A stretch of DNA of 51,157 nt, from IMG/VR virus record IMGVR_UViG_2925877141_000001; one strand, given 5' to 3'. Origin of the DNA: a virus. Its lineage: Duplodnaviria > Heunggongvirae > Uroviricota > Caudoviricetes. Positions 42,636 through 46,595 of this stretch are shown here, one piece after another; within the stretch, counting starts at the first letter, position 1, and each line of letters begins with the position of its first letter. The notes under the pieces were generated by a model. That model ran no database searches. It had not been told where the DNA came from and was given only the letters and a program-made list of their open reading frames with translations. Both the position numbers and the translations under genes were made by a program.

Positions 42636-45600
42636 ATGGCAGTAAAGATTTCAGGTGTACTGAAAGACGGCGCAGGTAAACCGGTACAGAACTGCACAAT
42701 CCAGCTGAAAGCAAAACGTAACAGCACCACGGTGGTGGCGAACACGGTGGCCTCAGAAAATCCGGATGAAGCCGGGCGTTACAGCATGGACGTTGAGTAC
42801 GGTCAGTACAGCGTTATTCTGTTGGTGGAAGGCTTCCCGCCATCGCATGCCGGGACCATCACCGTGTATGAAGACTCACAACCGGGTACGCTGAATGATT
42901 TTCTCGGTGCCATGACGGAGGATGATGTCCGTCCGGAGGCACTGCGCCGCTTTGAACTGATGGTGGAAGAGGTGGCGCGTAACGCGTCCGCAGTGGCGCA
43001 GAACACAGCAGCCGCGAAGAAGTCAGCCAGCGATGCCAGCACATCAGCCCGTGAGGCGGCAACCCATGCGACTGATGCTGCAGGCTCAGCACGTGCAGCC
43101 AGCACGTCAGCCGGACAGGCCGCGTCGTCGGCTCAGTCAGCGTCTTCCAGCGCAGGAACGGCATCAACAAAGGCCACTGAAGCATCAAAAAGTGCTGCCG
43201 CCGCAGAGTCTTCAAAAAGCGCGGCAGCCACCAGTGCCGGTGCAGCGAAAACGTCGGAAATGAATGCCGCAGCATCACAAAAATCTGCGGCCACATCTGC
43301 ATCCACCGCGACCACGAAAGCGTCAGAAGCTGCCACCTCAGCCCGGGATGCGTCGGCTTCAAAAGTGGCGGCAAAATCATCAGAAACGAGCGCTGCCTCG
43401 AGCGCCGGCAGTGCAGCTTCCTCGGCAACGGCAGCAGGAAATTCCGCGAAGGCCGCAAAAACGTCTGAGACGAATGCGGATAACAGCGCACAGGCGGCAG
43501 CAGACTCACAAACTGCATCGGCAAACTCCGCGACAGCAGCCAAAAAATCAGAAACCAACGCGAAAAATAGTGAGGCAGCAGCAAAGGTCAGCGAAACCAA
43601 CGCTAAAGCGTCAGAGAACAAGGCGAAAGAATATCTCGACAAGGTCGGGGGACTCGTCAGCCCGATGACGCAATACGATTGGCCCGTTGTTACTGGTAGT
43701 GAGCCTTTTTACATAAAGATCGCGAAACTTTCCGATCCCGGAAGCAAAGATTGCCATGTAACGCTAATGGTTACTAATGCCGGTAACTACGGCTCCCCTT
43801 ACGGAAACATTGACTTTATCGAGATCTCGGCGCGCGGTCTGCCTTCTTCGCTTACTGCGGATAATGTTTCTCGTCATCTGAGTATACGCCGCTTAGGGTC
43901 AACCGGGCTGACCGATAACAACCAGATGCGTTACGGCCTGGTTAAAGGTGACGGCTTTATTGAGGTTTGGGCATTCCAGGGTGCGTTTATTAACGACGCA
44001 AAGGTTGCGGTGCTGGCGCAGACAACACTAAACACAGAATTATACATTCCAGACGGATTTGTTAAGCAAACCGCCGCGCCTTCTGGATATATTGAAGGCA
44101 ACGTTGTAAGGATTTACGACCAGGTAAACAAGCCGACTAAAGCAGATTTGGGTCTTTCTAATGCTATGCTTACAGGCGCTTTCGGTCTTGGCGGTAGCGG
44201 GATATCAACAAACGGCAAGATGAGCGATGTAGAGATCTTAAAAGCTCTGCGTGACAAAGGTGGTCATTTCTGGCGCGGTGATAAGCCGACCGGAAGCACG
44301 GCGACCATTTATAGCCACGGTTCTGGTATATTCTCGCGGTGCGGCGATACGTGGTCAGCGATCAATATCGACTACTCAACCGCGAAGATTAAGATCTATG
44401 CCGGCAACGATGCCCGGCTTAACAACGGGACTTTTAGCGTCAATGAGCTATACGGCTCGGCAAACAAGCCGTCGAAATCGGATGTTGGACTTGGCAACGT
44501 AACGAACGATGCGCAGGTAAAAAAAACCGGCGATACAATGACCGGTGACTTGACAATCAAAAAAGGTACACCGTCAGTCTTCCTGCGGGCAGACAGTGGA
44601 GTCACCGCTTTGCGGTTTTATACTGGCGATAACACAGAGCGCGGCATAATCTATGCTGGTCCTAACACTGATTCGCTTGGCGAAGTTCGCATCAGGGCAA
44701 AGACAGCAGGGGGGACATCAGGAGGGGATCTTGTTGTTCGTCACGACGGGAGGGTTGAAGTCCGTGATCTCACAGTAGCGTATAAAATTAAAAGCAGAAC
44801 GATTGAGATTGCAAATACCGACACTGACTCATCGGCAACTACGCTAAGCATCTATGGAGTACAGCACACGCCGTTGGTTTTAACGCGTTCTGGTTCTTCT
44901 GAAAATGTGTCCATTGGGTTTAAGTTAGACAACATGAACCCAAAGTATCTTGGAATTGATACTAATGGGGATCTGGCTTTTGGTGAGAGTCCTGATCAGA
45001 AACAAAACAGCAAATTGATCACGCAAGCGAAACTCGACAAGGGATTAACGATTGGTGGTCAACTGGCTTTCAAAGGTACGACAGCGTTTTCAGCCGCTGC
45101 TACGTTCAGTGCCGGGATAGCAGGAGCCATCGAGCCTGAAAACATTGGCGACCAGAAGGTTGATCTTAACAACCTGACCATCAGGTCAGATGCCGGGGCG
45201 GTTAAATACTATAGTTGTCCATCCTCTGGAGGTGGTGCAAATATCACCAACAAGCCTGACGGTGTAACCGGTAACTTTTTGCTCCGTGTAGAGTCGACTC
45301 GCAAAGTTTCTGCTTCGGATTATGCGAACATGCAAACGCTGATCAGCAACGACACAAAACGTATATACGTTCGCTTTGTTGTTAATGGAAACTGGACAGC
45401 GTGGAGTCAGGTTGTTGTTTCCGGATGGAATCAGGATGTAACCGTCAGGTCGTTAACCTCGACGACTCCATCAAAATTAGGTGGCGGGCGGATTGATGTG
45501 CTTGGAAGTACGTCAGATTATGGCAGCATGAATTGTACCGTTCGTGGTGTTGATAGCACTGGAACCAATTCGGCGTGGTCGGTAGGCACATCAGAAAGCA

Positions 45601-46412
45601 CAGGCAAAATGTTGTTCCTGAAAAACCACAGAAGCAGCGCTCAAGTGCTGTTAAATGGCGATGATGGAGCGGTTCAACTACTAAGTGGCACTGTTAACGG
45701 TGCTACAGCGCAGGCGCTAACCATCAACAAAGATGAGGTTAACTCAACTGCCGATTTAGTAATTAGAAAACAAACAGGGACTGGCAATCGTTTTGCTTTA
45801 CTTAATTCAGGTAATTCAGAACTACCAGTTAGTATCAGGGTGTGGGGTTCCAGTACTCGACAAAACGTTTTTGAGGTTGGCACGTCTGCTGCGTATCTGT
45901 TTTATGCGCAAAAAACAACAGACGGGCAAAACCTTACTGTAAACGGAAGTGTTAACTGCACCACACTGAATCAGTCATCAGACCGCAGACTGAAAGAAAA
46001 TATCGAGATTATCGATAACGCGACTGACGCAATCCGCAAAATTAATGGATACACGTACACGCTCAAGGAGAATGGGGCACATTGCGCCGGGGTTATAGCC
46101 CAGGAAGTTGAAGAGGCCATCCCGGAGGCCGTTGGTTCATTCATCCATTACGGTGAAGAGTTGCAAGGCCCGACCGTTGACGGCAACGAGCTACGCGAAG
46201 AAACGCGCTATCTTAATGTTGACTACGCCGCCGTGACGGGTTTACTTGTTCAGGTCGCCCGTGAAACAGATGATCGCGTTACCGCGCTGGAAGAGGAAAA
46301 CACAACGCTACGTGAAAATCTGGCAACAGCAGACACCCGGATCAGCACTCTGGAAAATCAGGTAAGCGAACTGGTTGCACTTGTCCGGCAGTTAACAGGA
46401 AGCGAACATTGA
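42636..46412 (+). CDS. stf: Side tail fibre (Stf-like N-terminus, Ala/Ser-rich repeats, distinct distal region, C-terminal intramolecular-chaperone-like domain)
   Basis: MAVKISGVLKDGAGKPVQNCTIQLKAKRNSTTVV... resembles lambda Stf N-terminus; C-terminal ...NQSSDRRLKENIEIID...YTLKENGAHCAGVIAQEVEEAIPEAV... resembles the S74 chaperone signature. Confidence 0.8.
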   Translation: MAVKISGVLKDGAGKPVQNCTIQLKAKRNSTTVVANTVASENPDEAGRYSMDVEYGQYSVILLVEGFPPSHAGTITVYEDSQPGTLNDFLGAMTEDDVRPEALRRFELMVEEVARNASAVAQNTAAAKKSASDASTSAREAATHATDAAGSARAASTSAGQAASSAQSASSSAGTASTKATEASKSAAAAESSKSAAATSAGAAKTSEMNAAASQKSAATSASTATTKASEAATSARDASASKVAAKSSETSAASSAGSAASSATAAGNSAKAAKTSETNADNSAQAAADSQTASANSATAAKKSETNAKNSEAAAKVSETNAKASENKAKEYLDKVGGLVSPMTQYDWPVVTGSEPFYIKIAKLSDPGSKDCHVTLMVTNAGNYGSPYGNIDFIEISARGLPSSLTADNVSRHLSIRRLGSTGLTDNNQMRYGLVKGDGFIEVWAFQGAFINDAKVAVLAQTTLNTELYIPDGFVKQTAAPSGYIEGNVVRIYDQVNKPTKADLGLSNAMLTGAFGLGGSGISTNGKMSDVEILKALRDKGGHFWRGDKPTGSTATIYSHGSGIFSRCGDTWSAINIDYSTAKIKIYAGNDARLNNGTFSVNELYGSANKPSKSDVGLGNVTNDAQVKKTGDTMTGDLTIKKGTPSVFLRADSGVTALRFYTGDNTERGIIYAGPNTDSLGEVRIRAKTAGGTSGGDLVVRHDGRVEVRDLTVAYKIKSRTIEIANTDTDSSATTLSIYGVQHTPLVLTRSGSSENVSIGFKLDNMNPKYLGIDTNGDLAFGESPDQKQNSKLITQAKLDKGLTIGGQLAFKGTTAFSAAATFSAGIAGAIEPENIGDQKVDLNNLTIRSDAGAVKYYSCPSSGGGANITNKPDGVTGNFLLRVESTRKVSASDYANMQTLISNDTKRIYVRFVVNGNWTAWSQVVVSGWNQDVTVRSLTSTTPSKLGGGRIDVLGSTSDYGSMNCTVRGVDSTGTNSAWSVGTSESTGKMLFLKNHRSSAQVLLNGDDGAVQLLSGTVNGATAQALTINKDEVNSTADLVIRKQTGTGNRFALLNSGNSELPVSIRVWGSSTRQNVFEVGTSAAYLFYAQKTTDGQNLTVNGSVNCTTLNQSSDRRLKENIEIIDNATDAIRKINGYTYTLKENGAHCAGVIAQEVEEAIPEAVGSFIHYGEELQGPTVDGNELREETRYLNVDYAAVTGLLVQVARETDDRVTALEEENTTLRENLATADTRISTLENQVSELVALVRQLTGSEH

Positions 46413-46595
46413 TATCCTTCAAGCTCTGAAGGAGGCTGTTCCCGGTACGTTCAGACTGTTGTTGAGCTGGAAATCGCAACGGAGGAAGAGAAAGCGTTAC
46501 TGGCCGCATGGAAAAAGTATCGGGTGTTGCTGAACCGTGTTGATACATCAACTGCACCTGATATTGAGTGGACAGAAGAACCAGACACCGTGTAA
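46413..46595 (+). pseudogene. Tail fibre assembly (tfa) 3' remnant
   Basis: Start-less frame encodes ...[45 protein letters not shown], a Tfa-type C-terminus, directly after the stf stop. Confidence 0.55.

Follow-up and report, generated by a model that had tools for sequence, protein, structure and literature searches.

The stretch of DNA analysed here, referred to as the window, is 51,157 nucleotides long and is the tailed-phage record IMGVR_UViG_2925877141_000001 in IMG/VR. It contains a lambda-like prophage of Escherichia coli, and the element under study is the gene for the side tail fibre (Stf) of this prophage at 42636-46412, together with the remnant of a tail fibre assembly gene (tfa) that directly follows it. 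It was concluded that the distal part of this fibre and most of tfa were very probably replaced by a T5-type cassette that carries its own chaperone. An earlier note on the same DNA had described a fibre that begins like lambda Stf, continues with a long Ala/Ser-rich region and ends in an S74-type chaperone-like domain, followed by a start-less Tfa-type C terminus, and had proposed a swap of the distal module. The features on which the argument draws are as follows, in window coordinates.

42636-46412, plus strand: side tail fibre gene, an intact open reading frame (ORF) that is also intact in the two RefSeq segments L001 and L002.
42636-43037, plus strand: lambda Stf-type N-terminal anchor, amino acids (aa) 1-134 (PF08400).
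About 42996-43635, plus strand: Ala/Ser-rich degenerate repeat, aa 121-333, of a kind common to lambda Stf and T5 pb1.
43385-43477, plus strand: left crossover zone, a patch of ~90 nt located by five-way DNA alignment.
43653-45509, plus strand: shaft, aa 340-958, like that of T5 pb1, the L-shaped tail fibre (BLASTP, tblastn, phrog_24369).
45510-45977, plus strand: distal tip, aa 959-1114, the presumed receptor-binding region; the T5 alignment ends at aa 958.
45978-46409, plus strand: S74 intramolecular chaperone, aa 1115-1258, with a long C-terminal helix (PF13884).
45978-45980, plus strand: codon of the predicted scissile Ser1115, from alignment of the Ser/Lys pair.
45993-45995, plus strand: codon of Lys1120, from the same alignment.
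46413-46449, plus strand: spacer of 37 nt between the fibre stop and the tfa remnant.
46450-46595, plus strand: tfa remnant (the stub), the last ~45 codons and stop, start-less and in the same frame as the fibre (PF02413).
46607-46645, no strand assigned: strong hairpin with an A-run and T-rich flanks, likely a bidirectional terminator for the late operon and the convergent GIY-YIG gene.
42598-42619, plus strand: terminator between lom and the fibre gene, given for context and as in lambda, with a hairpin (8-bp stem, 7 GC pairs) followed by TTTTTGTGGG.

The fibre gene was read as a single uninterrupted ORF of 1258 aa that closes with a TGA stop codon (included in the coordinates), and it occupies the place expected of stf in a lambda-like gene order (J at 38424-41903, lom at 41972-42571, fibre from 42636). 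No sigma-70-like promoter was found in a scan of 42400-47000. The assignment of the N terminus is supported by a match to the phage_tail_N domain (PF08400, E 1.1e-71) and by the near identity of aa 1-94 to the Stf N terminus in the lambda tail structure 9e7m (E 3e-51), which bears out the lambda-like beginning described in the earlier note. Residues 1-284 were 93 % identical to Stf of PhiR29_1, and the 5' part of the gene was 87 % identical to lambda at the nucleotide level. The gene thus has the anchor domain and the position after J and lom that mark the Stf family, whereas its distal part is pb1-like with an S74 end in place of a gp37-like tip dependent on a separate Tfa.

The Ala/Ser-rich region, which had been placed at about 43000-43650, was located at nearly the same position. 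Its composition was 35 % Ala and ~21 % Ser over aa 121-333, and 35 % Ala, 22 % Ser, 11 % Thr and 9 % Lys over aa 123-339. Tandem Repeats Finder returned only trivial arrays of 12-13 nt for this region, and the repetition is therefore at the protein level rather than a tandem repeat of DNA. The region aligned with both PhiR29_1 Stf and aa 34-210 of T5 pb1. It is not a new feature, being common to lambda Stf and T5 pb1, and the left crossover lies within it.

The limits of the replaced segment were deduced from DNA homology to the stf-tfa regions of lambda and PhiR29_1, which was confined to 42501-43477 and 46450-46571, with 3 kb of foreign DNA between. This is the pattern expected of the distal module swap that had been proposed. 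At the left side, lambda-type stf and T5 ltf were themselves ~85-90 % identical at the DNA level within 43385-43477. The window followed the lambda type until the end of this patch (43477) and the T5 type from its start, the homology to T5 ltf setting in at 43368 and running at 77 % nucleotide identity from there onward. Because the lambda-type and T5-type sequences overlap in this shared patch of ~90 nt, the left crossover is best explained by ordinary homologous recombination inside the shared Ala/Ser repeat.

The T5 relationship of the shaft was established by BLASTP, in which fibre aa 177-958 aligned with pb1 aa 34-819 at 55 % identity, the Ala/Ser-rich segment of pb1 included. The shaft further matched phrog_24369 (E 7e-293), and tblastn matches were obtained in T5, GEC_vB_N5 and Klebsiella phages. 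The likeness to pb1 was limited to this homology: pb1 aa 1-33 and 820-1263, which hold the N terminus for p132 and the mannose-binding bullet domain, had no significant counterpart, and for the bullet domain itself (aa 970-1263) none was found in the fibre by BLASTP. The last ~315 residues of the fibre, comprising tip and chaperone, instead shared 38-44 % identity with the lateral fibres of WildeMaa, JenP2 and other siphoviruses, and a weak T4 gp34-like motif was noted at aa 1059-1143. The tip exists as several alleles, and the allelic blocks were 62-77 % identical among relatives. Since the lambda-type 5' part, the T5 ltf/pb1-like shaft and the lateral-fibre-like end come from different relatives, the fibre is regarded, on these alignments, as a mosaic of three sources: the 5' part of lambda Stf, a pb1-like shaft and a lateral-fibre-like tip with its chaperone.

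The assignment of the C-terminal domain, which had been called S74-like on inspection, was upheld by the domain search. PF13884 (Peptidase_S74, 'chaperone of endosialidase') matched at aa 1115-1166 with E 2.6e-16 and 60.1 bits against a curated cut-off of 22, placing the chaperone at the extreme C terminus of the fibre. At the start of the domain, the motif S1115-D-R-R-L-K1120 aligned with SSDRRIK of the phage S16 gp37 chaperone (6f45), and both the serine and the lysine five residues on were invariant across an alignment of 27 relatives (A1). The Ser-x4-Lys spacing is the same as in S1264/K1269 of T5 (PMC4690869). In T5 pb1, Ser1264, which lies near Lys1269, cuts the Thr1263-Ser1264 bond once the intertwined tip has folded correctly; the mutation S1264A abolishes this cut, and competition for the receptor is seen with cleaved pb1 only (PMC4690869). 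An AlphaFold2 (AF2) monomer model of aa 930-1258, built on the 27-sequence alignment, was poor (pLDDT 58, pTM 0.29) and was used for secondary structure only, which at this low confidence consisted of strands at 237-247 and 257-266 followed by a helix at 268-325 (~58 residues), in fragment numbering. A Foldseek search of the PDB with this model gave TM of ~0.18, with weak matches mostly to T4 gp34 and a very weak one to 3gw6 (E 0.26).

The sequence directly after the TGA confirmed the start-less Tfa-type C terminus that had been reported there. The stub resembled tfa from about codon 141-147, so that the first three-quarters of the gene are gone. It matched lambda Tfa residues 147-191 and PF02413 (Caudo_TAP), the latter only at profile positions 86-130 of 131 (E 6.5e-20). 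In the frame 46413-46595 no ATG, GTG or TTG was found that would give an ORF of >=40 aa; a complete Tfa, with ~190 aa, a start codon and the N-terminal domain, is thus not encoded here. A scan with NCBIfam gave no match for either the fibre or the stub. The spacer was the same in the window and phage Ayreon, differed by one base in phage mEp460, and occurred as two near-identical variants among 43 unique relatives. A small hairpin after the TGA was no better than shuffled sequences (z -0.65) and gave no read-through signal. The hairpin at 46607-46645 was strong (dG -27.2 kcal/mol, z -5.5, with 0 of 200 shuffles as good), and its homologue lies behind intact tfa in lambda and PhiR29_1.

Comparison of the stub variants showed a nearly invariant core, followed by 3' tails that fell into at least seven types and led into different downstream DNA in each. 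In two of these types the tail is that of an intact tfa gene, from lambda and from PhiR29_1 respectively. To judge by these mosaic tails, exchange with ordinary tfa genes evidently still goes on within the stub. The stub frame was open in 42 of the 43 unique variants, the exception being the frameshifted L064. A separate observation was made in PhiR29_1 (L005 7259-7564), where a second tfa-like ORF of 101 aa lies downstream of the intact tfa. Its N terminus is unrelated and gives way to the conserved C-terminal module of Tfa at about residue ~136, at nearly the same point as the stub junction, which suggests a recurrent breakpoint at the Tfa domain boundary.

The history of the right junction was deduced from its distribution. 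The spacer and stub were joined in the same way in the window, Ayreon, mEp460 and ~45 IMG/VR viral contigs, namely all those whose fibre stops at TGA and whose sequence runs far enough beyond it. A 271-nt junction probe was present in 802 of 5426 complete Escherichia coli genomes (about one in seven), with ~1400 copies in all and a median of two per genome. The full 4-kb arrangement was found in ~300 of these complete genomes, the best match being 99.6 % identical (MY1-8), while partial matches to the region occurred in 5225 of the 5426, at a median of four places per genome. Since the right junction was identical across phages, viral contigs and E. coli genomes, the data point to one ancestral event that has since spread.

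The fibre C terminus had diverged to 75-80 % among relatives. When identity among relatives was binned along the gene, it amounted to 95-100 % in the 3'-terminal ~250 nt of the fibre, in the spacer and at the beginning of the stub, and to 62-77 % in the upstream segments, tip alleles among them. An ancient junction with a special constraint on the stub frame was considered and rejected, as the divergence was confined to the upstream allelic blocks. Because the identity of 95-100 % lies in the 3' block and the divergence upstream of it, this block appears to be young or recently spread, and the open frame of the stub would need no special constraint. The same fibre 3' block adjoined different downstream cargo in relatives. 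The truncation of tfa is read as the right-hand scar of the swap itself, not as later decay. The fibre gene, its chaperone included, is under purifying selection: dN/dS between window and Ayreon was 0.10-0.30 in every segment of the fibre and 0.16 in the S74 chaperone.

The following course of events is proposed. One recombination event would have replaced the distal two-thirds of stf and the first ~145 codons of tfa, the incoming cassette being derived from a fibre of the T5 L-shaped (pb1) type. In the resulting protein, the Stf N-terminal domain would dock on the tail tip and be followed by the Ala/Ser segment, the pb1-like shaft, the small distal tip and the S74 chaperone. The tip is presumed to bind lipopolysaccharide (LPS) or a surface glycan; its kinship with pb1 and lateral fibres prompts the guess of O-antigen or LPS core as receptor. 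On the model of T5 pb1 and the K1F endosialidase, three chains would trimerise through their chaperone domains, which would template the folding of the intertwined tip. Ser1115, activated by Lys1120, would then cut the Ser1114-Ser1115 bond, which would free a fragment of 144 residues and ~16 kDa and expose the receptor-binding end. The mature fibre of 1114 residues would stay anchored via the Stf N-domain, and a separate Tfa would not be needed. The tfa stub would persist as part of the young, near-identical 3' block (last ~250 nt of the fibre gene, spacer, stub and terminator), which recombination continues to carry from one lambdoid prophage to another.

The domain content, the two junctions, the distribution, the purifying selection and the lack of Tfa in two viable phages are established here, whereas that the fibre trimerises, cleaves itself, binds a receptor of the stated class and is independent of Tfa is deduced. 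The dispensability of Tfa for an S74-type fibre, in particular, is inferred from known S74 chaperone behaviour, the S74 chaperones being enough for T5 pb1 fragments expressed alone in E. coli (PMC4690869). Besides the stub, no Tfa homologue was found in the complete genomes of the plaque-forming temperate isolates Ayreon and mEp460, and the other fibres that combine an Stf N terminus with S74 (the L065 group) had no tfa sequence downstream. The K1F gp17 protein carries an S74-type chaperone. An engineered chimera, in which the N-terminal part of lambda Stf is joined to the K1F gene 17 product, was functional on lambda particles, with >99 % delivery (PMC11338833).

Several points weigh against this scheme. 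Assembly, cleavage and mounting of the fibre on virions are predictions from sequence, and the poor AF2 model and weak fold-search matches give no structural confirmation. Lambda itself can live without side fibres, so that the viability of Ayreon and mEp460 is no proof that their fibres fold without Tfa. Cryptic prophages of E. coli hosts, among them K-12, contain tfa genes that could in principle act in trans. Finally, the window prophage lacks G, GT, H, M and half of L, and this copy of the fibre cannot serve virions of its own.

The supply of a Tfa-type chaperone in trans from other prophages of the host, which the fibre would then still need, was weighed against self-chaperoning and judged unlikely. 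Such a supply is compatible with the partial matches in 5225 of the 5426 E. coli genomes, which include stf 5' and tfa 3' ends, and with the isolation of Ayreon on K-12, a strain that itself carries the cryptic tfa genes just mentioned. However, Tfa of phage Mu binds the receptor-binding domain of its own fibre (PMC7291167) and the tip found here is unrelated to that of lambda, and S74 chaperones are sufficient for T5 pb1 fragments, as cited above. It was deemed still less likely, and indeed very improbable, that the fibre gene is a decaying pseudogene. In MY1-8 and GPEC206-621 the PGAP pipeline treats the first 435 nt of the gene as pseudogenic and annotates no more than a shorter coding sequence (CDS) behind them, and the window prophage is tail-defective. 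The frame of 1258 codons is nevertheless unbroken in the window and both RefSeq genomes, dN/dS is 0.1-0.3, the same gene is annotated at full length in phages Ayreon and mEp460, and the split annotation looks like an artefact. Expression of the stub as a mini-Tfa C-terminal module, by read-through of the TGA or from an internal start, was considered the most remote of these readings. The stub keeps the reading frame of the fibre in all relatives as well as in the window, it is open in nearly all unique variants, and the spacer holds a Shine-Dalgarno-like GAAGGAGG. Against this, there is no in-frame ATG, GTG or TTG before 'RVLL', from which no more than 23 codons remain; a shared frame arises by chance one time in three and goes back to a single event; a block that is 95-100 % identical everywhere has had little time for decay; the L064 variant is frameshifted; and the hairpin after the stop is no better than its shuffles. 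A read-through extension would, moreover, ride on the chaperone fragment that is cleaved off.

A further explanation concerns only the persistence of the stub; it adds to the replacement by a self-chaperoning cassette and is compatible with it. The stub may be useful as DNA, forming with the terminator the right homology arm of a mobile chaperone-independent fibre cassette whose left arm is the stf 5' end and the Ala/Ser repeat, and cassettes bearing such arms could enter any lambdoid prophage with a normal tfa. This is put forward tentatively, at less than even confidence. It accords with the near-invariant stub core and its tails of at least seven types on different downstream DNA, two of them intact tfa endings of lambda and PhiR29_1, with the differing cargo beside the same 3' block, with the joint near residue ~136 in the second tfa-like ORF of PhiR29_1, and with the terminator hairpin kept behind intact and truncated tfa alike. 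The same pattern is, however, predicted equally by a neutral stub that is merely young, and the Stf-S74 fibres of the L065 group have no stub, so that the arm is dispensable. The specific proposal that the 3' block and the Ala/Ser repeat are the two arms of a helper-free receptor-binding cassette, with the stub kept by selection for mobility, is rather doubtful. If true, a left arm ~85-90 % identical in DNA to virulent T5-like phages would offer a standing route by which host-range modules pass between those phages and temperate lambdoid prophages.

Replacement by a self-chaperoning cassette was also assessed against the closest known systems. The side fibres of Ayreon (MF807953) and mEp460 (JQ182728) share with the window the locus after J and lom, the N-terminal anchor, the S74 end, the 37-nt spacer and the tfa stub. 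The Ayreon fibre is 85 % identical to that of the window in nucleotides throughout, while that of mEp460 has an unrelated middle part across window 43610-45443; unlike the window prophage, both phages have complete tail genes. The Stf and Tfa of Ur-lambda are alike in the N-domain, the first ~280 residues, the position after lom and the terminator after tfa. The lambda Stf tip resembles T4 gp37, and lambda Stf needs Tfa, which stays on the virion (PMC7291167), whereas the distal part in the window is pb1-like with S74 and only the last ~45 codons of tfa are left. T5 pb1 (ltf; 4UW7/4UW8) corresponds in its shaft (55 % over aa 34-819) and in the type of its C-terminal self-cleaving chaperone with Ser-x4-Lys. 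It differs in attaching through the collar protein p132 rather than via an Stf N-domain (PMC7291167), in its bullet-shaped receptor domain (aa 970-1263), which is replaced in the window by a WildeMaa/JenP2-like tip of ~155 aa, and in its chaperone, which is so distant that no significant BLASTP alignment was obtained. Chaperones of the K1F endosialidase type (PF13884, MEROPS S74, 3GW6) appear alike in the Pfam match, the C-terminal position, the Ser/Lys pair and the predicted hairpin and long helix. Their passenger is a sialidase, whereas here it is a fibre tip, and the fold match to 3gw6 was at E 0.26 only. The engineered lambda-K1F Stf chimera of Broedel et al. 2024 (PMC11338833) is man-made with the fusion at Stf S528, whereas the natural crossover lies at ~aa 250-281.

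The arrangement is real but ordinary: it is common, its parts are already annotated, and published phages carry the gene. RefSeq names the fibre 'pyocin knob domain-containing S74 family peptidase' or 'prophage tail fiber N-terminal domain and S74 family ...' and tags the stub 'tail fiber assembly protein, incomplete, missing N-terminus'. In the literature searched, no publication was found that sets out a lambdoid Stf bearing an S74 domain and followed by a tfa stub; the Gifsy-1 Stf paper is silent on Tfa and chaperones, and the Ayreon announcement is silent on the fibre. In both L001 and L002 (6001-9777; NZ_CP122517 and NZ_CM142770), PGAP splits the intact ORF of 1258 codons into an 'incomplete' pseudogene of 435 nt and a shorter CDS, and leaves the Ala/Ser region as a gap. 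The split is apparently a systematic artefact of annotation that affects hundreds of genomes, and surveys of prophage fibres that rely on the split RefSeq annotation may undercount or misclassify the gene. The value of the finding is practical rather than conceptual, and it opens no new question of phage biology. It provides a natural precedent with exact junctions for lambda side fibres bearing their own folding domain and presumed to need no Tfa, a design that engineered delivery particles also use (PMC11338833). The Ala/Ser crossover (aa ~250-281) and the conserved 3' block are suggested as fusion points pre-tested by evolution.

With regard to the rest of the prophage, the ORF at 36014-37075 is an in-frame fusion, with its junction near 36778, of the tail tube protein V (TTP domain and Big_2) to the C-terminal half of the minor tail protein L; G, GT, the tape measure gene H, M and the 5' half of L are deleted. 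Because of this deletion the window prophage is judged, from its gene content, unable to build a tail. The contiguous V-L junction was found in 0 of the 5426 complete E. coli genomes, matches stopping at query base 179, and it is either a private deletion or an assembly artefact. The cargo at the right end consists of a LEM-3-like GIY-YIG protein (46665-47438, minus strand), a Dcm-type C5 cytosine methylase (47803-49278, plus strand) and an EcoRII-type restriction endonuclease (49313-50527, minus strand). Since the same three genes also lie behind the fibre in the prophages of MY1-8, beside ssrA, and of GPEC206-621, beside an icd remnant, the restriction-modification system appears to travel with the phage. 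Inside the prophage, a protein of 417 aa with an nSTAND1/AAA_16 NTPase domain (23604-24857, plus strand) may be an Avs-like defence gene.

The tmRNA gene ssrA (50756-51118, minus strand; tag ANDENYALAA) lies directly to the right of the cargo, and the lambdoid integrase is at 11280-12446 (minus strand). To the left of the integrase is a second element with a partial integrase (1-756), a serine recombinase (1039-2595), two ParB/RepB-like genes (2585-4374), a D12 adenine methylase (8509-9408) and an AAA ATPase of the AbiEii/OLD kind (9488-11272), which suggests tandem islands at ssrA.

Two further observations were made among the sequences compared. In L065 (3437-5748, minus strand), and also in L066-L070, a different fibre with an Stf N terminus and S74 is encoded, with 1115 aa, a TAA stop and no tfa stub. 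Behind it, on the opposite strand, are two neighbouring ORFs that each match part of a reverse transcriptase (RVT_1) and may represent a split or frameshifted reverse transcriptase of the retron or defence type carried as prophage cargo. The records 'Campylobacter phage CJLB-4' (MW057783.1, 48.4 kb) and 'Campylobacter phage A16a' (MG065636.1) matched lambda stf-tfa or the fibre tips of coliphages in the same way as E. coli phages, and are probably coliphage sequence under a Campylobacter name.

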